DNA of 64,000 nucleotides from the NCBI GenBank assembly GCA_043814965.1, contig JBDRJN010000032.1, positions 20,126 to 84,125 of the forward strand. Direction: 5' to 3'. The notes under the pieces were generated by a model, which was given only the letters and a program-made list of their open reading frames with translations, ran no database searches and was not told where the DNA came from. Position numbers and translations under genes: made by a program. Position 1 is the first letter of the stretch; each line of letters starts with the position of its first letter. Source of the stretch: Candidatus Omnitrophota bacterium (GTDB taxonomy: Bacteria; Omnitrophota; Gorgyraeia; Gorgyraeales; Gorgyraeaceae). Of this stretch, positions 11,254-58,924 are shown in pieces.

Positions 11254-13839
11254 TCAAGGCCTTTTCGATTCTTGGAAACATATAAGTCTTTGTGATACAA
11301 CATCTGACATGATCCTTAATTTTTTATCCTCTACATCATATACACTTACGACACCTTCATACTTTATGGATCCCGGCATAAGTCTTTTAAAAGAGTCTTC
11401 CAGCTGCTTAAACCATTCATTATTCAACGAGACGTCTTTCTTTTCCGGAAAGAGAGCAATATAAAATATATTTGTCTCCACTAAATCCTGGAAAAAGTGT
11501 GTCCCAAAAGATAACTCTGGCATCAGATTGCCAGCTGAAAAAGCGATCTCTGCTAGAACTGTTACATTATTTATCTCGGCAAATTTTACTGGTACGCCCA
11601 AAGACGGGGTCGTAGTGCCCCATCTCCCAGGCCCCATCAGAAGAGTAGGCAGCGTAAGCCTATCTTCGATGCTCCTGTTAAGATTTCCCACTATGCGCGC
11701 GATCTCATATTTGTCTGACAACGTAAGTTTACTATATCCTTCAGGATCAACATATATTATCCTTTTTATACATTGCGAGATGTTTCCCCCTAGAAAATAC
11801 CCTTGCGATCTAAAGAATATATCTTCTTCCTTTATAGCCTCTGGTATCTCGACTTTATTACTCAATCCCCATGTCTGTAGAGGCCTGCACTGCAATAGAT
11901 TTACCTTGAACGTACCATCATTTGTAAAATTTACTGTGAATTCTATTTCAACAGGATAATTATAGCTTTCTTCGAGCGCCCTCAATATCTTCCTAAAAGA
12001 ACCCGCTATCTTATTATCTTTAAACACATTATCAAGTGTCAAGATCCAGTATTCTTTTTCTTTCATGGAGCTTTCTTTCATCATTCGCATGGCTTCATAG
12101 TCTTTCACTGCCATACGGTCCAGGCCCATATATATATTTTTATCTACGAGGTCTCCAAAAGCAATAGTCTGGAATGCGTTTTCTTTTGTATTTATAATAT
12201 CGACTTCGTGCTGTGAAAATTTTCTTAGGTCATCTTTTTCCGCATATGGCCTTTTCAAAGGATCATCAAGCACGACCATCCTAGGATAATCGCCTTCAAC
12301 GCGGTTAACCGCCCTTGTTCCAAGACCGAACACCAGCCTAAGCATACCAGCTTTTGGGTCCATGCTCTCATTCCAAACATATGTATTGTGGGATATGCCG
12401 ACCCCTGCAAGATCAGGAAAAAAATAATATTTATGATGCGCTCCTGAAACCCTCTGCACCAAGAGCGCCATCTGTTCATCTAGCTTATCAAGCCCTCTTT
12501 GTTTTCTATACACAAGCGCGTCTTCGCTCATAGTGCTTGCATATATCCTCTTTACAGCATCCGCAAATTGAAGATACCTTTGTTCAGGCGTACCTTGATT
12601 TGCTAAAAATATACTTTCGTATTTTCCGGCAAATGCATTACCAAACCCATCTTCCAGGAGAGAGCTTGAACGTATTATAATAGGTGATGACCCAAAATAT
12701 TCTATGATCTGCTGGAAATGCTCCATTATATTCTCTGAGAACACCCCGTAAAGCATCTTGTCTTTCAATAGCTTCGCTGTCTTGTAATATCCTTCTTCTG
12801 TCTTTTGCTGCATGCGTAATTTCCACAATTTGTTCTCGACAATATATGAATAAAAGATATCGGATCCTATATAAAATGAGTCGTGCGGCTCTGAGAGGTT
12901 TTTCCAATCAATGGACTTGGCCTTCGATAGGATCTCCCGGGCCAAAAGCATCCCTACTGTCTTACCTCCGACAAAACCTGTTCCTATCAGCCGTGATTTT
13001 ATATCTATGATCTTCTCCAGAGAAAAATTTCGCACTGCTAGGGACAGGATCTTCTTGTTTTTTGTGATCATTATGCTGCATAATTTTTTTATGGTGCTAT
13101 TTATCTTTTCTTTTGAAGCACCGTTCCTGGCCAATCCTTCTGCCTCCAGGAACAGGCGGTCCCAGTAATCAAGGTTCCTCTTTGCGCTTTCTGCTCCTTT
13201 TTCTCGGATATATGAAAGTATTTTTACAGCATTAACGCTGTCAGCGATAGGAATATATTTATTTTTATTTCTTTGATGAGGGAGGAACATCGTAGGCGAA
13301 TATCTGTTCCATACTTTCAATGGATGTATATAAGAGCTCCCCTCGCAATGATACACATCCATAAGTAATTGTGTTGTCTCGCGTATACACGCTATAGATT
13401 TAAAAGAATGGTTGTTGCGCAATATAGAAAAATATGTAACGGTCTTGAGTTCATAAAGATAAGGGCATGTCACCATGAAAAAATTTCCTATCATAAGGTC
13501 AGTAGCCCATGCCAAAAGAAGCTCTGACAGGCAATCAAATACATAATATGCCCCTTCGCCTTCCTGTGTAATAATATTGTTTATTTTAGTAGTAAAAGAC
13601 TCGAATCCCGCATAAGCATTGAGCTCATAACGCTTAATACCCTTTGAAGGCTTGAGCAATTCCTTATGAGAAGCAAACCTCATATATATAATGTTCTTTT
13701 TATCTTTTAGGGCTTGATCTACAAAAGGCTTTGCAAGATCAATATAGTCTTTTATATCATCTATCTGCCAGACTACATTGTCTCCTGTCTTAAGCCCTGT
13801 TATTACATCATCCAGACCCTTGATGCCAGTACTTATCAT
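11254..13839 (-). CDS. PEP/pyruvate-binding (PPDK_N-type ATP-grasp) domain protein with a degenerate RecA/KaiC-like N-terminal domain
   Basis: 861 aa. The middle and C-terminus carry GGKTVGML, IIRSSSLLEDGFGNAFAGKYESI and LVQRVSGAHH, which are typical of the PEP synthase / PPDK nucleotide-binding domain. The N-terminus (GIKGLDDVITGL..G.NVVWQ) resembles a KaiC/RadA fold but lacks a Walker A motif. I saw no phosphohistidine swivel domain. Confidence 0.65.
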   Translation of the reverse strand: MISTGIKGLDDVITGLKTGDNVVWQIDDIKDYIDLAKPFVDQALKDKKNIIYMRFASHKELLKPSKGIKRYELNAYAGFESFTTKINNIITQEGEGAYYVFDCLSELLLAWATDLMIGNFFMVTCPYLYELKTVTYFSILRNNHSFKSIACIRETTQLLMDVYHCEGSSYIHPLKVWNRYSPTMFLPHQRNKNKYIPIADSVNAVKILSYIREKGAESAKRNLDYWDRLFLEAEGLARNGASKEKINSTIKKLCSIMITKNKKILSLAVRNFSLEKIIDIKSRLIGTGFVGGKTVGMLLAREILSKAKSIDWKNLSEPHDSFYIGSDIFYSYIVENKLWKLRMQQKTEEGYYKTAKLLKDKMLYGVFSENIMEHFQQIIEYFGSSPIIIRSSSLLEDGFGNAFAGKYESIFLANQGTPEQRYLQFADAVKRIYASTMSEDALVYRKQRGLDKLDEQMALLVQRVSGAHHKYYFFPDLAGVGISHNTYVWNESMDPKAGMLRLVFGLGTRAVNRVEGDYPRMVVLDDPLKRPYAEKDDLRKFSQHEVDIINTKENAFQTIAFGDLVDKNIYMGLDRMAVKDYEAMRMMKESSMKEKEYWILTLDNVFKDNKIAGSFRKILRALEESYNYPVEIEFTVNFTNDGTFKVNLLQCRPLQTWGLSNKVEIPEAIKEEDIFFRSQGYFLGGNISQCIKRIIYVDPEGYSKLTLSDKYEIARIVGNLNRSIEDRLTLPTLLMGPGRWGTTTPSLGVPVKFAEINNVTVLAEIAFSAGNLMPELSFGTHFFQDLVETNIFYIALFPEKKDVSLNNEWFKQLEDSFKRLMPGSIKYEGVVSVYDVEDKKLRIMSDVVSQRLICFQESKRP

Positions 13840-18300: not shown

Positions 18301-19840
18301 CTGACAAAAAGGCATGAGGAGTGTCATTGCCCATACTACCTACGGGCTCTTTGCCATCCTCTGCCATAGGCTTTAATATCAACTTAAGGTCTTCTCTGGA
18401 ATAACCAAATGCCTTGAGACTGCGGATTATGTCCTCGGATCTTTGTTTGTTAGTCCCGCTAGCCATAAGTTTATCAAGGTCTACCATGCTCTTGGTGTTC
18501 CATTCACCGTATGGACATTGTAAAGACACCCTCTTTTTTATTTCAGGATCATGTACTATAGAACCTAATTCAGTATCTATAAAAAATATCTTTCCTGGTT
18601 CCAGCCTCCCTGAAACCTTGATATCCGAAGGGTCTATGCCAAGAACCCCTACCTCTGATGCCATAACTACAAAATCATTTTTAGTCACTATATAGCGCGC
18701 AGGGCGCAGGCCATTTCTGTCCAAGACAGCTCCTATATTCTTTCCATCCGTAAATGCTATCGCAGCTGGCCCATCCCAGGGTTCTGCAAAACATGCATGA
18801 TATGTATAAAAATCCTTGAGTTCTTTTGTCATAAGGTTGTTATGCTCCCAGGCTTCAGGGATAAGCATCATCATAGAACTTTCAAGAGACCTGCCTGAAA
18901 GGACCAGAAGTTCAAAAAAATTATCTATTGCGGCAGAATCGCTTCCGCCTTCAACAATAACTGGTTTTATCTTTTCTATGTCTGTAGCGAATAAACCGCT
19001 TGCAAGCAACCGTTCTCTTGCGCTTACCCAATTGATATTGCCTCTTATAGTATTTATCTCTCCATTATGGGCTAAAAATCTAAAAGGCTGCGCCAGGTCC
19101 CAGGTAGGAAAAGTATTAGTGCTGTAACGTGAATGCACCAGGCATAAGGCGCTCTTTATATTTTTATCCTTGAGGTCCAGGAAAAAATTCTCAAGCTGGG
19201 TAGGCATAAGCAGCCCCTTATAAGAAAATGTACGGCTGGATATATTGGTAATATAGAAAGCTCTCTTTTCCTCTAAGCTGGAGTTACGAATAGCATTATC
19301 AACTTGTTTTCTTATTAGATACAGCCTTCTCTCAAAGCTTAATGCATCCTCTTTGGTCATGATCTTTTTATTGCTTCCTATAAATATCTGTTCAAATACC
19401 GGCTGAGCGTCTCTTGCAGTCTTGCCGATATCAGAATTGTCTATAGGTACTGTACGCCACCCCAATAAAACCTGGCCTTCTTCTTTTATGATATTCTCGA
19501 AAACCTCCTTACAGAATTTTCGCTCTTTATCTTTCTGTGGCAAAAATATTAGGCCAGTTCCATATGAACCCTCTAGCGGTAGATCAATCTTGGCTTCTTT
19601 CGCTGCCCTTATAAAAAACTCATGAGGTATTTGTATTAATATACCGGCGCCATCGCCTGTTTTTGGATCTGCCCCTACTGCCCCGCGATGAGACAACCGC
19701 CTTAATACCTCTATACCCTGCTTTACAATAGAATTCGATCTTTCTCCTTTAATATTGCAGACAAACCCCACCCCGCAGCTATCTTTTTCAAATTGCGGAT
19801 CATACAGTCCTTGTTTTTCTGAAAAATAAGGTTGCCTCAT
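15299..19840 (-). CDS. gltB: Glutamate synthase large subunit
   Basis: 1513 aa. N-terminal Cys amidotransferase (CGVGF), a central FMN domain, and a C-terminal GXXG repeat domain. Confidence 0.95.
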   Translation of the reverse strand: MRQPYFSEKQGLYDPQFEKDSCGVGFVCNIKGERSNSIVKQGIEVLRRLSHRGAVGADPKTGDGAGILIQIPHEFFIRAAKEAKIDLPLEGSYGTGLIFLPQKDKERKFCKEVFENIIKEEGQVLLGWRTVPIDNSDIGKTARDAQPVFEQIFIGSNKKIMTKEDALSFERRLYLIRKQVDNAIRNSSLEEKRAFYITNISSRTFSYKGLLMPTQLENFFLDLKDKNIKSALCLVHSRYSTNTFPTWDLAQPFRFLAHNGEINTIRGNINWVSARERLLASGLFATDIEKIKPVIVEGGSDSAAIDNFFELLVLSGRSLESSMMMLIPEAWEHNNLMTKELKDFYTYHACFAEPWDGPAAIAFTDGKNIGAVLDRNGLRPARYIVTKNDFVVMASEVGVLGIDPSDIKVSGRLEPGKIFFIDTELGSIVHDPEIKKRVSLQCPYGEWNTKSMVDLDKLMASGTNKQRSEDIIRSLKAFGYSREDLKLILKPMAEDGKEPVGSMGNDTPHAFLSEQPQMLYNYFKQLFAQVTNPAIDSIREKLVMSLESFIGPEKNILEETPEHSHKIRVRNPILTDGELEKIRDISINGFKTKTIYTFFDAKSGKEGFVKVLERICFEAEYAIEKGYSFIILSDRGSDKDNIALPALLATSAVHQHLVRQTIRSQVALIVESAEPREVHHFALLFGYGAGCVNPYLAYEAIEYLITEKELSLDIQKALKNYNKAIREGILKILSKMGISTLRSYRGAQIFEALGLNESIIDKYFTGTVSRIGGVGLEGIAEETIKRYDHAYSERGVDTPYLTSGGVYQWKKDGEFHLWNPKTIASLQDSTRNNDYNKYKEFARMINDQSNNPTTLRSLLKFKETSPVPIEEVEPVKSIMRRFATGAMSFGSISRPAHETIAIAMNRIGGKSNTGEGGEDPNRFITLPNGDSRRSAIKQVASGRFGVTINYLVNADEIQIKIAQGAKPGEGGQLPGHKVSEVIAQTRYTTPGVTLISPPPHHDIYSIEDLAQLIFDLKNANPKARISVKLVSEVGVGTVAAGVAKGHADMILISGGDGGTGASPRSSIRYAGLPWELGLSETHQTLVLNNLRSRVRIQTDGQIRTGRDVAIAAILGAEEYGFCTAVLVVSGCVMLRHCHLNNCSVGVATQDSILQKNFKGRPEYIVNYFNFVAQELRETMARLGVRTIDEMIGRVELLDVNKDIVPLKAKGIDYSRILYKPDLPEYIGRRYQPGQEIGLEASLDRELIRKCKDSLEKNEPVSILAEINNTNRAVGAMLSGEICRRCGDGVLLEDTVVCKFRGIAGQSFGAFLAKGVTFELEGMTNDYVGKGISGGKIIVYPDKRSQYESDENVIIGNTTFYGAISGEAYIRGMAGERFCIRNSGLYAVVEGVGDHGCEYMTGGRIIILGKTGRNFAAGMSGGIAYVYDEDGNFKERCNTDMVELEKVKDEDKDTVYHLLHNHFKYTKSDKAKKIINSMHEELKKFVKVIPIEYKRILEGIKIEESLDLTEEYDG

Positions 19841-20064
19841 ATCTTGAATTTCTCCGAATCTATACCCAATCTTCTAACTTTATTATAAAGGGTATTTCTA
19901 TGGATACCCAGCATTTTCGCTGCTATTATCTTGTTGCCAAAAGACCTCTTTAGCGCTTTTTCAATAAGCATCTTTTCCATGCCCCCTATTACAACCGAAT
20001 AGATATGGCCTTTATGGATCATTATGAAATCATCATCTATGTTATCAATATCTTTACTCATCAT
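19837..20064 (-). CDS. Small stand-alone Fis-type (NtrC C-terminal-like) HTH DNA-binding protein
   Basis: 75 aa. IEKALKRSFGNKIIAAKMLGIHRNTLYNKVRRLGI matches the Fis / NtrC HTH_8 signature. A 4-nt ATGA overlap with gltB indicates translational coupling. Confidence 0.65.
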   Translation of the reverse strand: MMSKDIDNIDDDFIMIHKGHIYSVVIGGMEKMLIEKALKRSFGNKIIAAKMLGIHRNTLYNKVRRLGIDSEKFKI

Positions 20065-20165: not shown

Positions 20166-21494
20166 TCAAAGGATCGATAGATATTTATCCAATTCGTACT
20201 GAGGTACCTGTATCCTGTAACTATCCCATTCCTTTTTCTTCAGCTCTATGAATCTCGGGAAAATATGTGCCCCAAGGGTCTTTTTAACTAATTCACTTCC
20301 TTCTGTAATATTAATAGCCTGGCCTAAGTTATCAGGTAAGGTCTCTATACCTTGCGCCTTTCTTTCATTGTCGCTTAGATGATATAGATTGCCTTCCATT
20401 GCACCAGGGCATTTATAGCCTTTCTCTATCCCCTCTAATCCTGCATGAAGCATTGCTGCAAATGTGAGATATGGGTTACATGCTGGGTCACATGCCCTGA
20501 ATTCACACCTTGTAGCCTTTTCCATACCAGGATGATATAAAGGGACTCTGACAAGGGCTGATCTATTTCTGCGAGACCACGCGACATATACAGGCGCTTC
20601 GTAACCAGGCACAAGTCTCTTGTAAGAATTTGTAGTTTGAGCAAATATAGAACAGATCTCTTTTGAATGTTTTAATAGGCCTGCTATGTATGAACGCGCT
20701 GTATCAGACAGGTTATCCTTTGTGCTTTTATCAAAAAATGCGTTCTTCTCACCTTTAAATAGTGACTGGTGAGTGTGCATACCTGAACCATTCTGTCCAA
20801 ATATAGGTTTAGGCATAAAAGTAGCGTACACCCCGAATTTGCTGGCGATCTCTTTTACTGCTATTCTATAGGTGATGACATTATCTGCCATCTTTAATGC
20901 GTCATCATATCTCATATCGACTTCATGTTGACTTGGCGCAACTTCATGATGAGAATACTCTATCTTGATGCCCATCTTCTCTAAAGCCAATACCGTCTCT
21001 CTTCTTAAGTCACTTGCTACATCCAAGGTCGTAAGGTCAAAATATCCACCTTTATCAAGTATCTCTGTGCCCTTATCATCCTTAAAATAGAAAAACTCCA
21101 GTTCCGGGCCTAGATAAAAATGATCGTATCCCATATCAGATGCTCTTTTTAGGGCCTTTTTCAAAACATACCTTGGGTCACCTTCATAAGGCTGTTTATC
21201 TGGTGTCAAAACATCACAGATCATTCTTGCGACAGCCTTTTCGCTCGGCCTCCATGGAAGCAGGCAAAAAGTGTCAGGATCAGGGAGAGCTATCATGTCG
21301 CTTTCTTCAATATCCTGGTATCCTGTGATAGATGAACCGTCGAATCCCATACCATTTTCCAAAGCGCCTTCCAGCTCAGAATCAGTTATAGAAAAACTCT
21401 TCACCTGGCCCAATAGATCCGTAAACCAAAGCCTGATGAATTTTACATCCTTTTCCTTAACAAGCTTTATTATATCCTTCTTTGTCATACCCAT
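20166..21494 (-). CDS. glnA: Glutamine synthetase type I. The probable start is MGMTKKDII.
   Basis: GS signatures: GFDGSSI, SHHEVAPSQHE, NGSGMHTHQS and NSYKRL, plus a candidate adenylylation Tyr (NLYHL). The track start at 21530 lies inside the leader hairpin. An AAAGGGG SD sequence precedes the ATG at ~21494. Confidence 0.9.
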   Translation of the reverse strand: MGMTKKDIIKLVKEKDVKFIRLWFTDLLGQVKSFSITDSELEGALENGMGFDGSSITGYQDIEESDMIALPDPDTFCLLPWRPSEKAVARMICDVLTPDKQPYEGDPRYVLKKALKRASDMGYDHFYLGPELEFFYFKDDKGTEILDKGGYFDLTTLDVASDLRRETVLALEKMGIKIEYSHHEVAPSQHEVDMRYDDALKMADNVITYRIAVKEIASKFGVYATFMPKPIFGQNGSGMHTHQSLFKGEKNAFFDKSTKDNLSDTARSYIAGLLKHSKEICSIFAQTTNSYKRLVPGYEAPVYVAWSRRNRSALVRVPLYHPGMEKATRCEFRACDPACNPYLTFAAMLHAGLEGIEKGYKCPGAMEGNLYHLSDNERKAQGIETLPDNLGQAINITEGSELVKKTLGAHIFPRFIELKKKEWDSYRIQVPQYELDKYLSIL

Positions 21495-21527
21495 TTTTAC
21501 CCCTTTCTCGGTTTTTTGCCTCGTATT

Positions 21528-21676
21528 CATTAAGTAGAAAAGACGTTCCTATAGCGCTTGTCCTAGCTATAAGAACGTCTTTGTTCTATCTGGGTGATTA
21601 ACACAAACTTTGTGCTTATCTACCTATACTGGTAGCCTTCATATATACAAGTAAAAAAAGAGTGCTTTTGGTAACT
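21528..21676 (-). promoter_or_regulatory. Conserved nitrogen-regulon leader module, copy E1. Upstream of glnA1.
   Basis: On the gene strand the module contains, in order: AGTTACCAA, then 12 nt, then TTTTTACTTGTATA. Next come the palindrome GCACAAAGTTTGTGT and the hairpin AGAAC-AAAGAC-GTTCT. A 9-bp stem follows (AAGACGTTC...GAACGTCTT, enclosing TATAGC...GCTATA) with UUUUCUACUU after it, ~35 nt before the ATG. Confidence 0.55.
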
Positions 21677-21760
21677 TATTTTTTATCTAAAAGAGTCTAA
21701 AAGTAGACGTTCTATCCGAGTACACCCTACAGCACAATGATTAACGAATTAATATAACTA

Positions 21761-22102
21761 TTATCCTATTGCCTCACCGCCTCTTTCTCCTGTGCGGATC
21801 CTGATGCATTCATTGAGATCATATACAGCTATTTTCCCGTCGCCAATATTGCCAGTCCTAGCTCCTTTGATAACCGCACTTATAGTAGGCTCGACGAAAT
21901 CATCATTTACAAGTATCTCCAGCTTGATCTTGGGAATCAGGTTTACCTTATAGATCTTTCCTCTGTAAGATTCAGTATAACCTCTTTGCTGACCGCAGCC
22001 TTTTACTCTGCTTACTGTCATCTTAAATACCTCGGCCTTGAATAGTTCAGCTTTAACCGCATCCAGTTTTTCTGGCTGTATGATCGCTTCTATTTTTTTC
22101 AT
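21761..22102 (-). CDS. glnB: Nitrogen regulatory protein P-II
   Basis: 113 aa with a T-loop ([12 protein letters not shown]) and the GlnB signature. Confidence 0.9.
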
Positions 22103-22115
22103 TTACTGCCTCCTA

Positions 22116-23351
22116 TTATAAAGACTCCTCAGGATATGCCTCTATCTTGTGAATAGACAGATCCGCTCCTATTAATTCAGAGTGTTCATCAAGTCTTATA
22201 CCAAAAGTCTTCTTAAGTATAAAATAAACCAGGCTTCCGCCTATAAGCGCAAACACGATTGCAGCCAGTGACCCTATCAGCTGCGCTGATAAACTCACGC
22301 CTCCGAGCCCTCCGAGTATCTTCTTGCCGAAAATACCGCAAGCAACTCCACCCCAAGTTCCAGCAACTCCGTGAAGAGGCCAGACCCCCAATACATCATC
22401 TATTTTCAATTTCTCAGTCTCTGTCTGAAAAAGTACTACAAATATCACAGCAGCTACTGCTCCTGTAACTAGCGCGCCCATTGGATGCATCACATCCGAA
22501 CCAGAACAAATAGCTATCAGTCCTGCAAGCGCTCCATTATGTATGAACGTAACGTCGTTCTTAGACACGATCAAAGCTGCTATTATCCCTCCTACCATAG
22601 CCATAAGCGAATTGATAGCTACCAATCCGGAAATATTCTCTAATCTTCCTGCGCTCATCACGTTAAAGCCGAACCATCCTATACAAAGCAGCCAACTTCC
22701 AAGAGCCAGAAAAGGTATATTGCTGACTTTTATAGGCTGCGACTCGCCATTTTCATATCTCTTAAGGCGAGAACCCAATATTATGATAGCAGGCAGCGCC
22801 AACCATCCTCCCATAGAATGAACAACTACAGAGCCAGCATAGTCATGAAATGGTATACCCCCTGTAAAATTAGCCAGCCACGAACCAGCCTGGCCCAAAA
22901 GCAGATTTTTACCCCACACCAATGATTCGAAAAACGGATAGACCGACCCTACAAAGATCCCTCCTGCCAGAGCCTGGGTCCAAAACTTGGCCCTTTCAGC
23001 TATCCCTCCTGAAATAATAGCAGGGATGCACGCTGCAAAAGTCAAAAGAAAGAAAAAGTGCACTATATCAAAACCCTGGTTGGGGCCTAATAATTCAGAT
23101 GCTGGCTTCAAAAAACTTATCCCATAGGCGATCGGAAAGCCTATGATAAAATATATGACCGTGGAAAACGCCCAGTCAGTGATTATCTTCACCAATGCAT
23201 TCACCTGGTTCTTTTTCCTCACTGACCCTACTTCCAAAAAAGCAAAACCCGCGTGCATAGAGAAAACAAACATCGCTCCCAAAAGTAAAAATAAGATATT
23301 ACTGCTGGCAAGCAACTTTTCAAGGCTTATCGACAACATCTGCATATTCAT
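22116..23351 (-). CDS. amt: Ammonium transporter
   Basis: 411 aa Amt/MEP family protein with multiple TM helices. It lies immediately upstream of glnB. Confidence 0.9.
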   Translation of the reverse strand: MNMQMLSISLEKLLASSNILFLLLGAMFVFSMHAGFAFLEVGSVRKKNQVNALVKIITDWAFSTVIYFIIGFPIAYGISFLKPASELLGPNQGFDIVHFFFLLTFAACIPAIISGGIAERAKFWTQALAGGIFVGSVYPFFESLVWGKNLLLGQAGSWLANFTGGIPFHDYAGSVVVHSMGGWLALPAIIILGSRLKRYENGESQPIKVSNIPFLALGSWLLCIGWFGFNVMSAGRLENISGLVAINSLMAMVGGIIAALIVSKNDVTFIHNGALAGLIAICSGSDVMHPMGALVTGAVAAVIFVVLFQTETEKLKIDDVLGVWPLHGVAGTWGGVACGIFGKKILGGLGGVSLSAQLIGSLAAIVFALIGGSLVYFILKKTFGIRLDEHSELIGADLSIHKIEAYPEESL

Positions 23352-23357
23352 GCCTCC

Positions 23358-23497
23358 TTTTTACTAAAACAAAAGAGGCGTCCCTATAATTTTTTACAAC
23401 AATAAGAACGCCTTCGTTCTATTAGCCTTTACACAAACATTGTGCTTAGATACCTAATTACTTATATAAGTAAAAATAGAGGTAGCTTGGTAACTTA
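23358..23497 (-). promoter_or_regulatory. Conserved nitrogen-regulon leader module, copy E2. Upstream of amt1-glnB1.
   Basis: Blocks on the gene strand: AGTTACCAA, then 12 nt, then TTTTTACTTATATA. Next come the palindrome AGCACAATGTTTGTGT and the hairpin AGAACG-AAGG-CGTTCT. A stem AGGCGT...ACGCCT is followed by CUUUUGUUUU ahead of the start. Confidence 0.55.
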
Positions 23498-23591
23498 GGC
23501 CAAATCTTAATTGATAATTTATTGTTTAATCTTATATACCTGCGTAAAAGCATTATTCTAAGCTAGCCGGAAAATAGCTGATTAGAAAAAA

Positions 23592-23803
23592 GATAAAAGG
23601 AATTCTGTAAGCGAATTTGAAAATTTAACCTTTTATGAAGCGTTTTGGCGGTTTTTAAAAGGCTCGAAACTATCCGAAGCCAGCACGCCAGATTTTGTGC
23701 TGGCAAGTTTTTCGAGCCCCGACAAAATGCGTAATAAAAGGTGTCCCAAAGTAAATTCTATAAGTGGGAAATTTTCACCTGAGCGAACGGAATTCCTTTT
23801 ATC
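23592..23803. repeat. 212-bp element bounded by a perfect 14-bp inverted repeat (GATAAAAGGAATTC / GAATTCCTTTTATC). It encloses a nested GC-rich hairpin.
   Basis: The inverted repeat and the inner hairpin (GGCTCGAAA..GCCAGCAC..GTGCTGGC..TTTCGAGCC, 23661-23718) were read directly from the sequence. On the minus strand the outer stem is followed by UUUUUU. No ORF lies inside; the + ORF 23697..24038 is spurious. Confidence 0.5.
23648..23718 (-). terminator. Terminator-like nested hairpin downstream of glnK2
   Basis: A 9-bp outer stem and an 8-bp inner stem, followed by UUUUAAAAACC on the minus strand. Confidence 0.45.
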
Positions 23804-23830
23804 TTTAAACAAATTACTAACTATAACTTG

Positions 23831-24172
23831 TTACCCTATTGCCTTTCCTCCAGTTTCCCCTGTACGGATCCTTATACATTCAGGAAGGTCCAGCACAAAT
23901 ATCTTCCCATCTCCTATATTGCCCGTCTTGGCGCCTTTTATGATAGCATCAATAGTAGGCTTAACAAAATCCTCATTTACCGCTATCTCCAACCTTACCT
24001 TTTTAAGAAGATTTACATCATGTATAACTCCTCTATAGGTTTCTGTAAAGCCTTTTTGCTGTCCGCAGCCAAGCACATTAGAGACTGTCATCTTGTAAAC
24101 CTGCGCATCGTAAAGCGCTTTTTTAACATCAGGTAATTTATGCGGTTGTACCATTGCTATTATTAACTTCAT
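23831..24172 (-). CDS. glnK: P-II protein, GlnK-type, amt-linked
   Basis: 113 aa paralogous to the glnB at 21761. It lies immediately downstream of the second amt. Confidence 0.9.
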
Positions 24173-24256
24173 ATTACACCTCCGAAATTTTGCGAAGCAA
24201 AATTAAGCCCCGAGCAGCAACAGTCAATAACTATGCCGCGAGGGACAAGTTATGCT

Positions 24257-25513
24257 TTATTGGGTAGTAAAGATCTCGAATCCAGCGTATGATTCCATGC
24301 CATGCTCTCCTATATCTAGGCCTTTCAGTTCCTCTTCTTTTGAAACTCTTAGCCCTACTGTCTTATCTATTAATTTAAAAATAATGCTCATTGATGCGAC
24401 AATAAAAAGCGCTACTGATAGAACCCCCAGAGCCTGTATCCCAAGCTGAGTAAAGCCTCCTCCATAAAAAAGTCCGTTATTCGCAAGGCCAAGCGCTTTC
24501 TGGCCGAACAATCCTATAGAAAGAGTGCCCCATATACCATTTATGCCGTGTACAGGAAAAGCTCCCACGGGGTCATCTATGTGAAGTTTGTCCAATATAA
24601 CCACTGCCAATACTACTATAAACCCACCTATCATACCTATAATAATAGCTGCCCATGGCTCTACATATGCGCAAGGAGCAGTTATCGCTACGAGCCCTGC
24701 CAATGCTCCGTTCATTGCCATAGAGAGATCTGGTTTTCCAAATATCTTCCACACAGCAGCCATGGCTGTAAGACATCCTAAAGCTGCGGCGAGATTAGTA
24801 TTAATAGCTATTCTTGATATTAAATCTCCGTTTCCCACCCCAAGCGTAGAACCCGGGTTAAACCCAAACCACCCAAACCACAGTATAAATACCCCTAAAG
24901 AAGCCAGAGGTATTGAATGTCCTGCTATAGCATTTGCGGAACCATCAGCATTATATTTTCCTGTCCTTGGCTTTAACATTATAGTGCCTACCAGGGCTGC
25001 TACACCTCCTACTAGATGTACTACAGTAGAACCTGCAAAATCAGAAAACCCCAGCTTAGCCAGCCATCCTCCGCCCCATATCCAATGGCCTACGACCGGA
25101 TATATAAAAGCGGATATCAGAAAGGAATATACCAAGTATGCCTGAAACTTCATGCGTTCAGCCATGCCTCCCGCAACAATCGTTGCTGCTGCGCCGCAAA
25201 ATGCTGCCTGGAATAGCCAAAAAGCATATAAAGGTACGCCTGCGCCTGATTCAGCGCCATTCAAAAACCAGCCTTTTAATCCAATAAAACTATTTCCTGC
25301 GCCAAACATTATTGCATAGCCAAATACGAAAAATCCTAAAGACGCCATACAAAAATCCAGGAAATTCTTGGTCAATATGTTACATGTGTTTTTTGCCCTT
25401 ATGAATCCAGCTTCTACCATACCAAATCCAGCTTGCATAAAAAACACTAAAAATGCTGCCAACAATACCCATACAGTATCAAGCCCTGCCCTTAGATCAA
25501 CTAAAGTTTCCAT
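24257..25513 (-). CDS. amt: Ammonium transporter, second copy
   Basis: 418 aa Amt family protein. Confidence 0.9.
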   Translation of the reverse strand: METLVDLRAGLDTVWVLLAAFLVFFMQAGFGMVEAGFIRAKNTCNILTKNFLDFCMASLGFFVFGYAIMFGAGNSFIGLKGWFLNGAESGAGVPLYAFWLFQAAFCGAAATIVAGGMAERMKFQAYLVYSFLISAFIYPVVGHWIWGGGWLAKLGFSDFAGSTVVHLVGGVAALVGTIMLKPRTGKYNADGSANAIAGHSIPLASLGVFILWFGWFGFNPGSTLGVGNGDLISRIAINTNLAAALGCLTAMAAVWKIFGKPDLSMAMNGALAGLVAITAPCAYVEPWAAIIIGMIGGFIVVLAVVILDKLHIDDPVGAFPVHGINGIWGTLSIGLFGQKALGLANNGLFYGGGFTQLGIQALGVLSVALFIVASMSIIFKLIDKTVGLRVSKEEELKGLDIGEHGMESYAGFEIFTTQ

Positions 25514-25524
25514 AATCCCCTCCT

Positions 25525-26289
25525 TTATAAGCTAAAAGCTACTGTCACTCCTCCATAAAATTCGTTATCGTAATTGCCGTCATCTGCGTCCTTAAGGTCT
25601 CCGAAAGGCATGTCATAATTTATAACAGGCGATATTGAACAGATATCTGTTAATTTGATAGTAAGCCCTGCTCCAAGATTAACATGCCCTCCTTCTCCTT
25701 TAATAAACAACTCCTTGTTGTACCCAACTCCTCCTGATAAGTCCAAGGTTACTGGAGAATCTCCTACAGGCTCAGAATGGCTAAGACTAAGATAAACATA
25801 ATCTCCGCTTCCTCCTCCTGAGTCTTCTTCTCCAAAATCATGATAAAACGTTATAGAAGGAGAAAGTAATGTATCCAAGCTTGTTCCTATAAACCATTCC
25901 CTGCTGGCTCCGTCTGCTGCCGGAAAATCATAATACGTAAAACCTCCTGAGAGCGACACTGGGGTTCCAGGGATAGGATAACTATAACTTATAGAATAAT
26001 CCACCTCTTCGGAAGATGTCAAAGAATCATCCGAATCTATATCAGCGCTTCCCCAAATGCTTGTCTCAAAATCATAACCACTAACATAGACTCCTGGCTG
26101 AACCACTGGATCGCCATCAAGTTTTATACCTCTCCATATGTATTTCGAGAAAAAGCCAATATCCGAAAAAACGCTGATATCATGCCCTTCTAACAAAGGC
26201 TTTGTGTCTTCTGCAAAAACTCTCCTGGCCGTGAAACTGACCGAAAAACAAATCATTAATATCAATAATCCTTTTATAAGCTTCATCAT
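25525..26289 (-). CDS. Small outer-membrane beta-barrel, porin-like protein. It heads the amt2-glnK2 operon.
   Basis: The likely true start is MMKLIKGLLILMICFSVSFTA (signal peptide), with a GGGGAAGGGA SD just upstream. The track start at 26361 would run through the terminator hairpin. The protein has alternating beta-strand patterns, acidic loops and a C-terminal ...VTVAFSL. Confidence 0.5.
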   Translation of the reverse strand: MMKLIKGLLILMICFSVSFTARRVFAEDTKPLLEGHDISVFSDIGFFSKYIWRGIKLDGDPVVQPGVYVSGYDFETSIWGSADIDSDDSLTSSEEVDYSISYSYPIPGTPVSLSGGFTYYDFPAADGASREWFIGTSLDTLLSPSITFYHDFGEEDSGGGSGDYVYLSLSHSEPVGDSPVTLDLSGGVGYNKELFIKGEGGHVNLGAGLTIKLTDICSISPVINYDMPFGDLKDADDGNYDNEFYGGVTVAFSL

Positions 26290-26304
26290 TCCCTTCCCCT
26301 TTTT

Positions 26305-26415
26305 TGTAAAAGTTAAAAAATAAAACAGGCGTTCTTTATAAGAACGCCTTCGTATCAACACAACTATGTGTCTTTATCTGCTTATACAAGTAAGAATTTG
26401 ATTACTTTGGTAACT
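26305..26415 (-). promoter_or_regulatory. Conserved nitrogen-regulon leader module, copy E3. Upstream of porin-amt2-glnK2.
   Basis: Blocks on the gene strand: AGTTACCAA, then 12 nt, then TTCTTACTTGTATA. Next come the palindrome ACACATAGTTGTGT and ACGAAGGCGTTCTTAT, which forms the 5' arm of a strong terminator (GGCGTTCTT-ATA-AAGAACGCC plus UGUUUUAUUUUUU). The start follows ~35 nt later. Confidence 0.55.
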
Positions 26416-26472
26416 CCGTATCAAACTTTAACATAATTTAATTCTGGGACTTGGTATTGAGCAGATCACTTT

Positions 26473-26988
26473 TTAATCAAACTTCCTATGCCATTTTTTT
26501 ATTATGTTCTTCTTATGCTTTAGGATCATGACATGGGATATATTCATCTCTTTTGCAGCTTCCCGAACTGTATATCCCTTAAGGAGATACGAGAGTACGG
26601 TCTTTTCGCTATCCGTCAAGCCTATGCCCTTCAATTCATCAACCGTAAGCCTGCGCTCCATGCTATCCGGAAAGCTTTCCTTTTTGTCTTCAAGGATATC
26701 GCCTAACGTCAGGTCTGTTGAAGGAATGATTTCATTGAGACTTGTTAATAATGCCTTTGGCCTTCCTTTTCTTAAAAAATTTTGAATATGGAACTCGCAC
26801 CCTTTGATAATATAACTCTCATTCTTATCGATCGGGGCCCCATACTTATAATTCTCTAGTAAATACAGGCACATCTCCTGATAAAGGTCATCTTCGCTAT
26901 AGAATCCTTTTAAGATATGCCTTCTAGCAATAAGCTTAAGCGTAGGAGTTATTTTTTCAAGTAGTATCCTAAAATCCATAAGTATCAC
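26473..26988 (-). CDS. ECF-type sigma-70 family factor
   Basis: 171 aa with a region-2-like segment (DDLYQEMCLYLLENY) and a region-4 HTH (LTDSEKTVLSYLLKGYTVREAAKEMNIS). An AGGTGA SD precedes the internal ATG (MDFRILL) at ~26979. Confidence 0.6.
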   Translation of the reverse strand: MILMDFRILLEKITPTLKLIARRHILKGFYSEDDLYQEMCLYLLENYKYGAPIDKNESYIIKGCEFHIQNFLRKGRPKALLTSLNEIIPSTDLTLGDILEDKKESFPDSMERRLTVDELKGIGLTDSEKTVLSYLLKGYTVREAAKEMNISHVMILKHKKNIIKKWHRKFD

Positions 26989-26995
26989 CTATTGA

Positions 26996-27045
26996 CTAAA
27001 AATAAAAAAGTCCTTTCCAGTAGAACTCTCTACCAAAAAGGACTT
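26996..27045 (-). terminator. Intrinsic terminator immediately upstream of the ECF sigma gene
   Basis: 9-bp stem (AAGTCCTTT...AAAGGACTT) with an inner hairpin, followed on the minus strand by UUUUUAUUUUUAG. Confidence 0.5.
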
Positions 27046-27054
27046 CATTGTCCT

Positions 27055-27087
27055 ATAAATATAAAAAGCGTTCCTTTCCTGGAACGC
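27055..27087 (-). terminator. Second tandem terminator in the spacer between the 266-aa gene and the ECF sigma gene
   Basis: GCGTTCC-AGGAAA-GGAACGC hairpin followed by UUUUUAUAUUUAU on the minus strand. Confidence 0.5.
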
Positions 27088-27250
27088 CTCATCGCCTTTA
27101 TATTGAGCACTATCTTTGTACTCAATATAAGTTTACCATCTTATGGGTGTACTGTCAATAGCCTTTTTTCTACTAGGGTTTTTCGCTGAGAAATCCAAGC
27201 GTCTTTTTGAGGCCCATCTCACAAAAAAAGCGAAGATCGTTTATAGCTTA

Positions 27251-30539: not shown

Positions 30540-31265
30540 TTACTTCATCTCATGCGTCATTACTATGGCTTCAGCGACATCCTTCATAGGCTTACGCCTA
30601 TCCATGCTGAACTTTTGTATCTTTCTAAAGGCATCTTCTTCTGTGAGACCTTCTTCTTTCATCAAGATACCTTTTGCTTTTTCTACTACTTTTCTTGTCT
30701 CGAGTTCTTCCTGTATAACACGCGTCTTTACCATAAGCTCTGTATTTTCTATAGCGATAGCTGCTTGATTTGCAACGCTTGTGAGGACGCTTATCTCTGT
30801 TTTTGAAAATTTATGCGGCTTTGAAGTGTAACAGTTTAAAGCTCCTATAACCTTATTTTTTACAGCTAAAGGCACGCACAAAAGTGAGGCAAGGCCTTCT
30901 TTTTGGGCAATATTTTTGTATTTGTATTCGGGATCCTTTAAAATATCCTCGACTACCAAAGGCTTATTAGCTGCGACTACTTTCCAGACCAAGCCCTCGC
31001 CTTTTTTTAGAGGGTCCTTACCTATATATTCTTCACTAATGCTTTGGGTTGCCCTTATAGAAAGATGTTCTTTTTTTTCATCCAAGAGCATAAGCGTACA
31101 GATCCTTGAATTCATGACTTCTGCTGTGACTGTTACGATAAGTTTGAGTATATCTTCTAGATAAAGATCGCTCGATATGGCTCTAGAGATCTTGGAAAGC
31201 GCTTCTATGGTATCAGCTGCTTTTGTATTCGTATTGGATCTTACTGCCTTATTTTTCTTTTTCAT
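30540..31265 (-). CDS. GAF-ANTAR domain RNA-binding antitermination regulator
   Basis: 241 aa. The N-terminal GAF domain is followed by a C-terminal ANTAR domain (ELETRKVVEKAKGILMKEEGLTEEDAFRKIQKFSMDRRKPMKDVAEAIV). It has a 4-nt overlap with lpxI. Confidence 0.8.
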   Translation of the reverse strand: MKKKNKAVRSNTNTKAADTIEALSKISRAISSDLYLEDILKLIVTVTAEVMNSRICTLMLLDEKKEHLSIRATQSISEEYIGKDPLKKGEGLVWKVVAANKPLVVEDILKDPEYKYKNIAQKEGLASLLCVPLAVKNKVIGALNCYTSKPHKFSKTEISVLTSVANQAAIAIENTELMVKTRVIQEELETRKVVEKAKGILMKEEGLTEEDAFRKIQKFSMDRRKPMKDVAEAIVMTHEMK

Positions 31266-32080
31266 ATAGCGATAACACTTAGCCCTATTTCGTTTGCCAT
31301 ATTCAATACTTTATCTTTATCTATGATAAGTGTCTTCTCCGCTTCTATTGCGATCGCCTTTGCTTTGACTTCCTTTAAAAGACTTATTGTGCCTGGCCCG
31401 ATCACAGGTATGTCAAATCTCATATCCTGCTTTGGTTTTGATACCTTTATTACTACAACCCCTTCTTTTCCGTAGAAAGCGCCTCTCTTTATCGCCTCGT
31501 CCGTCCCTTCTATGGACTCGACGGCCAAAACAGTTTTATCTTTTACTACAATGGTCTGGCCTATATCAAGGCCTGCTATTACCTTTATTATGTCTTTCCC
31601 GAACTCTATGTCTTCCAAGATAGTTTTATCTAAAGAGGAATTGGTCAAGATCCCTTTTTTAGGAAGTAGGTCTTCTAAAAATAAAGTGGATTTTAGGACC
31701 TTTATGCCTTTTTGCTCAAGAAAGCTTGCAACAGCGCCTATCAAAGAATCTGTCTTTTTATCCTTTACGCTTCCCAAAAGGCCCGCCATACTGCTATCAA
31801 GTTTTATGGATTTATCAAAGATAAGATTATGCCTGACCTGTCCAGCCATTACTACGTTGTTTATTTTCTCTTTTAATAATATCTCGAATAACTTTCCCAG
31901 TTCTCCAACGCTTAACCAGTAGATCCTGTCTACAATATTTTCTAATTCCTTCGATGTCTCTTCTTTTATCGCTATCCCTATTACTTCTACATTCTGTTTC
32001 TTGGCATTTTGAGCAAGAAGTAATGGAAATTTTCCGTTGCCTGCAAGCAAAGCTATTTTATTTACCACCTCGACAAACAC
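31262..32080 (-). CDS. lpxI: UDP-2,3-diacylglucosamine hydrolase, LpxI-type (DUF1009)
   Basis: 272 aa with an N-terminal IALLAGNGKFPL motif typical of LpxI. It is located after lpxA. Confidence 0.65.
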   Translation of the reverse strand: MFVEVVNKIALLAGNGKFPLLLAQNAKKQNVEVIGIAIKEETSKELENIVDRIYWLSVGELGKLFEILLKEKINNVVMAGQVRHNLIFDKSIKLDSSMAGLLGSVKDKKTDSLIGAVASFLEQKGIKVLKSTLFLEDLLPKKGILTNSSLDKTILEDIEFGKDIIKVIAGLDIGQTIVVKDKTVLAVESIEGTDEAIKRGAFYGKEGVVVIKVSKPKQDMRFDIPVIGPGTISLLKEVKAKAIAIEAEKTLIIDKDKVLNMANEIGLSVIAI

Positions 32081-58899: not shown

Positions 58900-58924
58900 A
58901 GCTCCCTTACAAGGAGAGATAATC

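Follow-up and report, generated by a model that had tools for sequence, protein, structure and literature searches.

The window analysed here, 64,000 nucleotides of DNA from the uncultured phylum Omnitrophota, carries three nitrogen operons on its minus strand. Pfam searches confirmed the gene identities proposed in the initial annotation, namely a glutamine synthetase, two ammonium transporters (Amt), two PII proteins and a Gcw_chp outer-membrane protein. The type I glutamine synthetase gene glnA1 (20166..21494; Gln-synt_C 3e-129) has its real start at the ATG at 21494, behind an AAAGGGG ribosome-binding site; its 97% identical orthologue at locus L009 starts at the equivalent ATG. The amt1-PII operon spans 21761..23351 (amt1 22116-23351, Ammonium_transp 1e-88; PII 21761-22102, P-II 1.6e-27), and the porin-amt2-PII operon spans 23831..26289 (porin-like Gcw_chp gene 25525-26289, amt2 24257-25513, PII 23831-24172). 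On the same strand lie sigL (our working name; 26473..26979), which encodes a 168-aa two-domain ECF-like protein of the sigma-70 family, and the gene of a 241-aa GAF-ANTAR protein (30540..31265; GAF_2 9e-25 and ANTAR 1.9e-22 in Pfam) with the sole ANTAR domain in the window. The latter gene is located 4 kb from the elements described below; it shares 4 nt with lpxI and, in the window, lacks its own leader.

Directly 5' of glnA1, amt1-PII and porin-amt2-PII are the three elements E1 (21528-21676), E2 (23358-23497) and E3 (26305-26415). Their coordinates, their location on the minus (gene) strand and the common order of their blocks were found to be as first annotated. The sequence AGTTACCAA has three exact copies in the 64-kb window (21668-21676, 23487-23495 and 26407-26415, all minus strand), and AAGRCGTTCTTAT likewise occurs three times with zero mismatches (21569-21581, 23402-23414 and 26338-26350). 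The gap between AGTTACCAA and TTTTTACTT, which had been given as 12 nt, is actually 10 nt in all three copies, so that GTTACCAA and TTACTT are 13 nt apart. With a covariance model built on the palindrome and last block, scores of 49.2 bits for E1, 47.4 for E2 and 38.9 for E3 were obtained (E-values of 6e-10 to 2e-7), and no match better than E = 0.1 was found in the rest of the window. The earlier claim that no other leader in the window contains the blocks holds for the promoter blocks, but not for the type of RNA: upstream of the sigma-like gene (27007-27128, minus strand) lies a fourth leader of this type, which is diverged and lacks the promoter blocks. The sigma-54/NtrC and NtcA consensus sequences are absent, as the annotation had said, and no GlnR/TnrA consensus is present in the elements.

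The first two blocks form a rigid, -35/-10-like arrangement, GTTACC-16 nt-TACTT. In E1 this module (21649..21676) consists of AGTTACCAA (GTTACC at 21670-21675), a 13-nt spacer and TTACTT (21649-21654). The modules of E2 (23468..23495; GTTACC 23489-23494, TTACTT 23468-23473) and E3 (26388..26415; GTTACC 26409-26414, TTACTT 26388-26393) have exactly the same spacing, as do 25 sites of relatives. This spacing was found at 28 gene-strand sites, compared with 1-6 sites for each other spacing from 8 to 18 nt and 2 on the opposite strand. Sequence conservation stops at TTACTT. No sigma-70-like promoter was detected when E1-E3 were scanned for the sigma-70 consensus; other leaders of the same lineage are preceded by canonical TTGACA/TATAAT promoters. 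To our knowledge, GTTACC and TACTT match no consensus promoter motifs of other alternative sigma factors. At locus L093, the module is located about 40 nt upstream of the ribosome-binding site, and the leader is absent between the two. A metagenome scan with the promoter-block pattern alone yielded 128 copies, 98 of which had a callable downstream ORF. By BLAST, 63 of these 98 ORFs matched nitrogen-cluster proteins (type I glnA 30, amt 12, HTH8-gltB 6, PII 5, GS-III-like 5, porin 3 and ANTAR 2), and a sample of the remaining ORFs contained BBP2 porins, type III glutamine synthetase (GS-III) and a permease-PII fusion. The recurrence at nitrogen genes of relatives that the annotation had predicted is therefore observed, and its proposal of a dedicated regulon signature for ammonium assimilation, a promoter plus a leader RNA, is supported.

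The palindrome and the last block had been described as an operator and/or leader RNA. Structure prediction strongly favours the second option and adds what had been missed: the two blocks would form the hairpins P1 and P2 of an ANTAR-type antiterminator leader, with a terminator overlapping P2. In E1, P1 (21600..21616, AGCAC-AAAGUUU-GUGUU) is followed by P2, the putative antiterminator (21572..21587, AGAAC-AAAGAC-GUUCU), whose hexaloop begins with A and has G as its fourth base. The intrinsic terminator (21539..21582) has a stem of 16-17 bp and a short U-tract, UUUUCU, and its 5' arm is made up of the P2 loop and the 3' arm of P2. E2 has the corresponding hairpins P1 (23431..23445, GCAC-AAUGUUU-GUGU) and P2 (23405..23420, AGAAC-GAAGGC-GUUCU) and a terminator (23366..23415) with its stem at 23376-23413/15 and the U-run CUUUUGUUUU at 23366-23375. 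In E3, P1 (26357..26372, GACAC-AUAGUU-GUGUU) again has a hexaloop with A1 and G4, P2 is found at 26342..26356 (GA(U)AC-GAAGGC-GUUC), and the terminator (26317..26349) reads AGGCGUUCUU-AUA-AAGAACGCCU plus GUUUUAUUUU. Full-length leaders fold into P1 and the terminator, with z-scores of -4.3 to -6.5 (E1 -36.7 kcal/mol, z = -6.5; E2 -28.9 kcal/mol, z = -4.9). When E1 and E2 are cut before the 3' arm of the terminator, they fold into P1 and P2. The strict ANTAR consensus is not matched in the 7-nt P1 loops of E1 and E2, the G at the first position of the P2 loop in E2 and E3, and the P2 stem of E3, which is the weakest of the three and, taken alone, is not the minimum-energy fold.

Among the 27 seed sequences, 87.7% of the cells pair, compared with 31-47% when the partner is slid. 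In 67 independent leaders that were retrieved via the promoter alone, 88.7% of the cells are paired (P1 96%), 7 of the 10 pairs vary on both sides, and G-U cells are numerous. Across homologues, the P1 helix is 93-96% paired, with compensatory changes in 4 of its 5 pairs. Loop position 4 is always G, in P1 as well as in P2, and a terminator with a T-run overlaps P2 in all 49 model matches examined. In ANTAR-anchored loci, 45 of 45 model matches lie on the strand of the ANTAR gene, and the genes of about 20 ANTAR orthologues are themselves preceded by the leader. These hairpin and loop features agree with the published definition of ANTAR targets (PMC3369931, PMC8164766). By analogy, the GAF-ANTAR protein is presumed to be the RNA-binding antiterminator of the leaders; its ANTAR domain matches Rv1626, 6wsh, NasR and AmiR. 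The GAF domain is closest to those of PtsP/EI-Ntr and NifA, and it presumably reports nitrogen status, e.g. 2-oxoglutarate or glutamine.

The module is probably read by the small sigma factor encoded next door. TIGR02937 matches SigL over its full length, but the match to the ECF model falls below the NCBI cut-off, the only significant Pfam match is to the GerE/LuxR helix-turn-helix, and the mean pLDDT of the structural model is just 70. In common with ECF (group 4) sigma factors, SigL has about 170 aa, sigma-2 and sigma-4 domains with a flexible linker, and a bipartite candidate promoter with a 16-nt spacer. It also contains a DLxQE motif and an N..LRKGR motif (region 2), which we take to be ECF sigma motifs. 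In the window and at 27 other loci, sigL ends just upstream of the module. E3 begins with its module 58 nt past the sigL stop codon, and in 16 metagenome loci the module follows this stop codon after 0-7 nt. Among 11 ANTAR-anchored loci, where sigL identity is 33-70%, the start of the module ranges from an overlap with the last 8 nt of the sigL match to about 140 nt beyond it in 10 loci and lies about 850 nt past it in L009. Co-occurrence of sigL and module is significant (Fisher p = 2e-7), in loci that are not phylogenetically independent and are too short for a missing sigL to carry weight. Since the module is nearly invariant, it offers no co-variation between protein and site that could be exploited, and we infer the pairing from synteny.

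SigL is atypical for an ECF sigma factor in that no anti-sigma gene adjoins it and it is not autoregulated from the module; its control is apparently exerted by transcription attenuation of its mRNA. The gene invariably follows a sigma-70-type promoter and an ANTAR leader, and in no case the module. In the window (27007..27158, minus strand), the promoter TTGACA-17-TAAACT (27130-27158) is followed by P1 (27100-27128), terminator T1 (27065-27090), hairpin P2b (27039-27054, AGGAC-AAUGAA-GUCCU) and terminator T2 (27007-27046), i.e. two terminators behind ANTAR-like hairpins. This leader folds with -50.2 kcal/mol (z = -7.7) and is a weak match to the covariance model (E = 0.21). Its layout is repeated in L020 and L024, and the sigL leaders of L009, L024 and L076 match the model significantly.

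Several other readings of the elements were weighed. That they are a generic intergenic repeat or mobile element of no regulatory meaning, as three similar copies within 5 kb might suggest, is effectively refuted: the 64 kb contain just three copies, each of them 5' of nitrogen genes and on the gene strand, and in other genomes hundreds of homologous sites are found at this position before the same families of genes, the metagenome sites preceding mostly nitrogen genes. The P1 palindrome is near-perfect and lies just 3' of the putative promoter, where a dimeric repressor might bind it as a DNA operator. We consider this very improbable, because the many G-U cells of the leaders indicate an RNA helix and would not be tolerated in a DNA palindrome; P1 in leader set A6 has 22 G-U or U-G cells, which in DNA are mismatches and are strand-specific. 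Moreover, the stem varies with compensation while the asymmetric loop stays conserved, and the distance from module to P1 varies from about 12 to 40 nt. There is equally little to recommend metabolite-sensing riboswitches in which P2 and the terminator switch without a protein. Glutamine riboswitches are known in other phyla, and conserved structured leaders with a terminator before nitrogen genes would suit such a mechanism, but an Rfam search of the leaders found no family at the gathering threshold or at E <= 5. The conserved part consists of two hairpins of <=5 bp each and has neither a junction nor a pocket, it is mainly the loops with their ANTAR A..G.. pattern that are conserved, and the leader is tightly tied to ANTAR genes, occurring even 5' of the ANTAR gene itself.

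A more serious competitor, although still an unlikely one, concerns the DNA blocks and would leave the RNA layer unchanged. Here, the first two blocks would be an operator or activator site next to a weak housekeeping promoter, bound by the 168-aa protein as a LuxR-type activator or by, e.g., the 75-aa Fis-like HTH_8 protein (19837-20064). The sole significant Pfam match of the 168-aa protein and the label "LuxR C-terminal-related" that NCBI gives to some members of its family are in line with this, as are the short palindrome GGTNACC and the TATAAG or TATATA right after TTACTT in the copies of the window.

The best explanation, which we regard as likely, is that each element is a two-layer control unit of a nitrogen-scavenging operon. 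At the DNA layer, GTTACC-16 nt-TACTT would serve an alternative, ECF-like sigma factor as its -35/-10 promoter. The best candidate for this factor is the protein whose gene (26473-26979) directly precedes E3, and transcription is predicted to start a few bases past TACTT. The nascent leader would form P1 first, and then either P2 or the long terminator hairpin, which are mutually exclusive because the 5' arm of the terminator is built from the P2 loop and the P2 3' arm. Without protein, the terminator is predicted to win, so that transcription ends before the start codon. With the GAF-ANTAR protein on the A..G.. loops of P1 and P2, P2 would be held, the terminator blocked, and RNA polymerase could enter glnA1, amt1-PII or porin-amt2-PII. 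The structure of the leader RNA is shown by computation; its dependence on the protein is suggested by homology. As sigL itself follows a TTGACA-17-TAAACT promoter and two terminators behind ANTAR-like hairpins, synthesis of the sigma factor and its target operons would both be gated by the same sensor. This architecture suggests a coherent feed-forward circuit that acts as an AND-type switch.

Parts of this scheme have precedents. As in the EutV/eutP system of Enterococcus faecalis (PMC3369931), two short hairpins in tandem have loops with A in the first and G in the fourth position, and the second hairpin excludes an intrinsic terminator. Both systems also have an ANTAR-domain protein encoded nearby and a regulon of several operons, some with tandem attenuators. 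In contrast to EutV/eutP, the regulator has a GAF sensor instead of a receiver domain, a class that was uncharacterised in 2012 (PMC3369931), the P1 loop often has 7 nt, and the leaders are joined to a dedicated promoter that is not of the sigma-70 type. Geobacter sulfurreducens likewise combines an alternative-sigma promoter with an ANTAR antiterminator whose target is a terminator in the leader (GnfL/GnfM-sigma-54 and GnfK/GnfR; Ueki and Lovley 2010, PMC2995071), which places the nitrogen genes nifH, glnK and amtB under double control (PMC2995071). GnfR binds CAGGCAANGGCGCC (PMC2995071), and the AANGGC loop of this site recurs in P2 of our leaders. However, the Geobacter cascade relies on sigma-54 together with an enhancer-binding protein, and phosphorylation activates GnfR (PMC2995071), whereas our elements have no sigma-54 motif and the candidate sigma factor is ECF-like and apparently gated by the antiterminator itself. 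The Klebsiella nasF leader (PMC12591593) is also made from a nitrogen-regulated alternative-sigma promoter (NtrC/sigma-54) and antiterminated by a one-component sensor-ANTAR protein, NasR, without a phosphorelay. NasR differs in that its NIT domain senses nitrate or nitrite and it controls one operon (PMC12591593); its pathway is nitrate assimilation, whereas here it is ammonium uptake and GS-GOGAT.

The link between ANTAR antiterminators and nitrogen genes is thus already published (PMC3369931, PMC2995071). For Firmicutes and Deltaproteobacteria, Ramesh et al. (2012) predicted elements of this kind in front of genes for PII, ammonium transporters and glutamine/glutamate synthase (PMC3369931); the lineage studied here (Omnitrophota, Aerophobetes) is outside the coverage of that work. 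Because ANTAR control of nitrogen genes had been predicted in other phyla, the RNA half of our finding belongs to a known kind, and about half of the apparent novelty is gone. The promoter and its likely sigma factor are the less charted half: judging from its genomic distribution, the module appears to be a promoter type almost confined to nitrogen-uptake genes in the uncultured phylum Omnitrophota.

All sequences analysed here are metagenome assemblies. The window (G+C 40%) carries dnaA, dnaN, gyrB and gyrA as well as bamA and lpx genes, and its nitrogen cluster, at approximately 13.8-31.3 kb, lies entirely on the minus strand. Read on that strand, the cluster begins with the gene of the GAF-ANTAR protein (30540-31265), a presumed RNA-binding antiterminator of 241 aa that is 100% identical to a protein in a Candidatus Omnitrophota metagenome-assembled genome. 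Next in order are queF, glnA2, a pair of envelope genes and a 168-aa sigma-like gene (26473-26979), to which we gave the working name sigL. Then come three units that are each preceded by a repeated region: a porin-like gene, amt2 and a PII gene behind E3, amt1 and a PII gene behind E2, and glnA1 behind E1. A 75-aa Fis-like HTH_8 gene and gltB and gltD complete the order. Between gltD and carA (11254-13839, minus strand), the nitrogen cluster also encodes a protein of 861 aa with a PPDK_N domain (the ATP-binding domain of pyruvate phosphate dikinase). The interval from the PII stop codon of the amt2 unit to E2 contains a nested inverted repeat of 218 nt (23589-23806), with arms of 38 and 24 nt and a central GC-rich hairpin. 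Read on the gene strand, this repeat forms a single long hairpin (-82 kcal/mol, z = -7.7) with a U-run behind it, and weak copies (67-70% identity) occur in the related loci L012 and L006; a MITE-like insertion or an unusually large operon terminator could account for it. Elsewhere in the window (57482-59440), dnaA and dnaN (minus strand) face rnpA, yidD, yidC, jag, parA and parB (plus strand), and the chromosomal replication origin is thus probably located in the gap at 58.8-59.1 kb.

The three-copy feature is real and, judged from its sequence, regulatory. The ordered blocks that the initial annotation had described in E1-E3 were recovered with a mean column identity of 69% in the alignment, and the 64 kb contain exactly three copies each of AGTTACCAA and AAGRCGTTCTTAT, in equivalent places and on the gene strand. 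The sole correction to the listed blocks concerns the spacer between AGTTACCAA and TTTTTACTT, which is 10 nt long and not 12 nt. A search of the window detected neither the module (the putative promoter blocks 1-2) nor the leader upstream of glnA2, gltB-gltD, carAB or the ANTAR gene; glnA2 lies inside the ANTAR-queF-glnA2 string and has no intergenic leader.

Across loci, the module has the consensus gGTTACCAAAa-N7-aTttTTACTT(G/A)T. Exactly 13 nt separate GTTACCAA from TTACTT at 28 gene-strand sites, while each other spacing from 8 to 18 accounts for 1-6 sites and the opposite strand for two; this peak gives the geometry GTTACC-16 nt-TACTT. Conservation ends at TTACTT, and the distance onward to P1, the first leader hairpin, varies from ~12 to 40 nt, as would be expected if transcription started there and the 5' end of the transcript were variable. 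Scanning E1-E3 with the sigma-70 consensus revealed no promoter. Many other ANTAR leaders of the same lineage are found behind canonical TTGACA-17-TATAAT promoters, so the housekeeping promoter type of the phylum appears to be ordinary and the module a distinct class. In the related locus L093, the module (~7647 from the reverse end) is situated ~40 nt 5' of the ribosome-binding site and gene of an OmpL-like BBP2 porin, and neither an ANTAR leader nor a terminator intervenes; this argues that the module is a unit of its own, separate from the RNA switch. The module is quite probably a promoter. Among the matches listed, L093 and L164 provide the only clear case of a promoter without the RNA switch.

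Metagenome contigs were scanned with the promoter pattern alone, which yielded at least 128 modules in at least 120 loci, and the downstream genes were identified by BLAST against the window proteins. A downstream gene could be assigned to 63 of the modules listed: type I glnA (30), amt (12), HTH8-gltB (6), PII (5), GS-III-like (5), porin (3) and ANTAR (2) among these matches. In another 30 of the modules listed, the contig end was too near for an ORF to be called. Sampling of the other downstream genes revealed OmpL-like BBP2 porins, a type III glutamine synthetase, an amino-acid permease-PII fusion and a family of 79-86 aa without Pfam match. The signature therefore appears to be specific to nitrogen acquisition.

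Some of the downstream genes deserve separate mention. The fusion, of 621 aa (L163 6535-), joins an amino-acid permease to a C-terminal PII domain and stands behind module and leader. A family of 79-87-aa proteins (MKDEPWLR...ENQMRENNLEG...WELEHNSQELREKFHLLHHYLDYL) is encoded directly behind module and ANTAR leader, often after a gltB-like gene, in L038 (374-613), L086, L101, L157 and L178 (79 aa) and in L087 and L160 (86-87 aa); it has no Pfam match and no member in the window. The Fis/NtrC-type HTH_8 mini-protein of 75 aa is encoded between glnA1 and gltB (19837-20064, minus strand). Its orthologues are preceded by the module in L085, L089, L099, L100, L149 and L196, with an ANTAR-type leader in L089, L099, L100 and L149; the window gene has no module and is preceded by the glnA1 terminator only.

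On the gene strand, the palindrome of the elements is a hairpin, P1 (e.g. AGCAC-AAAGUUU-GUGUU), and the last block is a second hairpin, P2 (AGAAC-AAAGAC-GUUCU), whose loop and 3' arm double as the 5' arm of a hairpin of 10-17 bp that ends in a U-run immediately 5' of the ribosome-binding site. The full leaders of E1-E3 fold into P1 plus this terminator (z = -4.3 to -6.5), and E1 and E2, when truncated 5' of the terminator's 3' arm, fold into P1 plus P2. The overlap of P2 with an intrinsic terminator, T-run included, was found in E1-E3 and in all 49 of the 49 covariance-model matches examined. Two short hairpins with A1 and G4 in their loops, the second of which competes with a terminator, are the published layout of ANTAR substrates (PMC3369931, PMC8164766). 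P1 and P2 have stems of 4-5 bp in E1-E3 (ANTAR criterion: at least 3 bp each). G at loop position 4 is invariant in both loops of all 27 seed sequences, and the loops with A at position 1 are all three P1 and the P2 of E1. The A1/G4 loop pattern of ANTAR-target RNA is thus present with one deviation, the G1 in P2 of E2 and E3, and one such deviation is permitted by the published criteria (PMC8164766). The hexanucleotide loop of the ANTAR criteria is found in all P2 and in P1 of E3. The P1 loop of E1 and E2 has 7 nt if the stem ends with CAC/GUG, and additional A-U pairs, if formed, would reduce it to 5 or 3 nt; loops of 6 and 7 nt both occur in P1 of relatives. The P1-P2 linker (2-25 nt in ANTAR targets) measures ~12 nt in E1 and 10 nt in E2, and in E3 the arms abut when the outer pairs are formed and lie ~4 nt apart when they are not. 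The 3' half of E1-E3 is very likely an ANTAR-type attenuator.

To follow this RNA in relatives, 80 loci around orthologues of the ANTAR protein (62-84% identity) were fetched from Omnitrophota and Aerophobetes. An ad-hoc Python finder of hairpins and terminators gave 1270 matches and was far too permissive; a covariance model, built from a seed alignment of 27 P1-linker-P2 segments, was used instead. In the seed, 87.7% of the cells pair, compared with 31-47% in slid registers, and compensatory both-sided changes are found in seven of the ten base pairs. The E-values of the model are rough; its strong matches in the window are E1-E3 only, and all 45 matches in the 80 ANTAR loci lie on the strand of the ANTAR gene. 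A second, independent set of 67 leaders, retrieved via the promoter pattern alone, showed 88.7% pairing (P1: 96%) with numerous G-U cells. An ANTAR-type leader follows most modules: 54 of 87 have a covariance-model match within 120 nt (80 loci searched), and most of the remainder have variant leaders on visual inspection. Immediately 3' of the leaders stand glnA, amt, PII, gltB, gdh, carB and the sigma-like gene. In ~20 loci the leader precedes the ANTAR gene itself, and this autoregulatory arrangement is the best in-silico link between the leader RNA and the ANTAR protein family.

Two further RNA features were observed in relatives. The gdh genes of close relatives (L003 11640-11800, L004 3700-3800, L011, L014 and L017) have a sigma-70-type promoter and then, almost directly, P2 and the terminator, while a P1 is not recognisable; the attenuator may thus exist in a variant with one hairpin. 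A conserved two-hairpin element (GCCCAGnAnGGGCACACCnAACnATCCnATATGTTnGGGTGTTA), absent from the window and without Rfam match, was detected in six related loci (L039 4943, L054 16309, L066 5239, L104 627, L163 6636 and L183 1091, minus strand). It is located 3' of an ANTAR-type attenuator in the loci inspected, between two of them in L104, with PII, amt or permease genes downstream, and may be a further regulatory RNA.

Other readings of the elements were weighed against these data. The suspicion that the signature is a generic repeat, which the initial annotation had named as its refutation, was rejected, because in the metagenome scan the modules precede nitrogen-acquisition genes; the predicted recurrence of a regulon signature at such genes in relatives was borne out by the same scan. 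As had been noted from the start for sigma-54/NtrC and NtcA, E1-E3 contain no match to the sigma-54 pattern GG-N10-GC (-24/-12), the NtrC enhancer site or the NtcA pattern GTA-N8-TAC, and the GlnR/TnrA pattern TGTNA-N7-TNACA gave none either. The single GTA-N8-TAC in the sigL leader was discarded as the palindromic top of terminator T2. P1 might be read as a DNA operator, but the numerous G-U cells in the 67 leaders point to RNA pairing rather than a DNA palindrome. A metabolite riboswitch (e.g. for glutamine) was also rejected, since no Rfam cis-regulatory family matches the leaders: the whole window at gathering threshold gave two tRNAs only, and 21400-27250 gave nothing with E < 1.8, even at a permissive threshold.

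The candidate reader of the module is sigL. TIGR02937 (ECF sigma-70 superfamily) aligns over positions 3-160 of 165 (E = 4.3e-9), at 36.2 bits, below the curated family cut-off of 42.9, and the Pfam models Sigma70_r2 and Sigma70_r4 match weakly (E = 0.04-0.17). Sequence-only comparison with solved structures recovered the C-terminal helix-turn-helix and nothing else; an N-terminal sigma-2-like domain is visible by fold search, and sigL is predicted to have the two-domain sigma-2/sigma-4 fold. We detected 279 homologues, nearly all from Omnitrophota and many annotated by NCBI as sigma-70 family. ECF sigma factors recognise a cognate bipartite promoter with a fixed spacing of ~16-17 nt, and the module, GTTACC-16-TACTT with its rigid spacing and strand, is a candidate for such a promoter. 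In the 80 ANTAR loci, module and sigL occur together in 11, the module alone in seven, sigL alone in two and neither in 60 (Fisher p = 2e-7, calculated on loci that are not independent). The distance between the stop codon of sigL and the module is 0-7 nt in at least 16 metagenome loci and 58 nt in the window, and the module adjoins a sigL-type gene in at least 27 other loci. On the basis of this conserved adjacency, we lean towards sigL as the sigma factor of the module.

An adjacent anti-sigma gene and an autoregulated promoter are typical of ECF sigma factors, if not universal. No anti-sigma gene adjoins sigL in the window, where its neighbours are DUF748/AsmA-like and porin-like, and sigL has its own promoter, TTGACA-17-TAAACT, and is not autoregulated from the module. 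Across the leader classes, amt, glnA and PII always have the module and sigL never. In the sigL leader (27007-27128, minus strand), this promoter is followed by P1 and a terminator and then by a second P2-type hairpin (AGGAC-AAUGAA-GUCCU) with a second terminator, T2, of 18 bp, a layout shared with L020 and L024; the sigL leaders of L009, L024 and L076 gave significant covariance-model matches.

The GAF-ANTAR gene lies ~4 kb upstream of the elements and encodes the sole ANTAR domain in the window (E = 1.9e-22), which matches Rv1626, the RNA-bound protein of 6wsh, NasR and AmiR. The best family matches of its GAF domain are the GAF domains of PtsP/EI-Ntr and NifA; that it reports 2-oxoglutarate or glutamine is speculative. 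The window gene has no leader and overlaps lpxI (31262-32080) by 4 nt, and is thus probably co-expressed with the lipid A genes, with control exerted on the protein itself. It continues without intergenic gaps into queF and the second glnA, forming an odd operon in which lipid A and queuosine genes are mixed with nitrogen genes; the ANTAR gene of more distant relatives is a separate unit preceded by a leader of its own. The GAF-ANTAR class was listed as uncharacterised in the founding ANTAR paper (PMC3369931).

The alternative P2/terminator folds, the covariation, the rigid promoter geometry, the regulon content and the synteny of the sigma gene were all established computationally. By homology, the GAF-ANTAR protein would bind both loops and prevent termination, and, from its context, sigL-RNA polymerase would initiate at the module; one sensor would thus gate sigL as well as its targets, which is a coherent feed-forward loop. 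We give an even chance to the full proposal: that Omnitrophota and at least some Aerophobetes scavenge ammonium by an undescribed circuit in which a one-component GAF-ANTAR sensor gates both the synthesis of a dedicated ECF-like sigma factor (through tandem attenuators, without anti-sigma) and each porin/Amt/PII/GS/GOGAT operon that this sigma factor drives from a rigid GGTTACC-N16-TACTT promoter, a coherent feed-forward loop that replaces NtrBC/sigma-54, NtcA or GlnR.

The design principle and the RNA were already known. Predictions published in 2012 placed ANTAR elements 5' of genes for PII, Amt, glutamine synthase and glutamate synthase, with tandem arrangements and regulons of several operons among them (PMC3369931). 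In Geobacter and Klebsiella, an ANTAR antiterminator acts together with a promoter of an alternative sigma factor, sigma-54 (PMC2995071, PMC12591593). Compared with these predictions and systems, the lineage, the GAF sensor class and the promoter motif are different here. Whereas Geobacter and Klebsiella use sigma-54, no sigma-54, NtcA or GlnR signals are present, and the ECF-like sigma factor is seemingly controlled by attenuation of its own mRNA and not by an anti-sigma factor. A non-exhaustive literature search found no precedent for such control of an ECF-like sigma factor, no ECF sigma dedicated to ammonium assimilation and no ANTAR work in Omnitrophota.

Omnitrophota are widespread and uncultured, and to our knowledge next to nothing has been charted of how they regulate their genes. 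For metagenome-assembled genomes, the promoter pattern and the RNA model are directly usable as annotation tools for nitrogen regulons. If the proposal is true, the sigma/promoter pair and the protein-gated attenuator would be compact, probably orthogonal, reusable parts, and the double gating would be a natural feed-forward control built from one sensor. The analysis provides a probable function for the GAF-ANTAR protein class, a specific candidate pairing of a small orphan sigma family with a promoter motif, and a concrete and testable wiring diagram of how Omnitrophota may take up and assimilate ammonium without the textbook nitrogen regulators.
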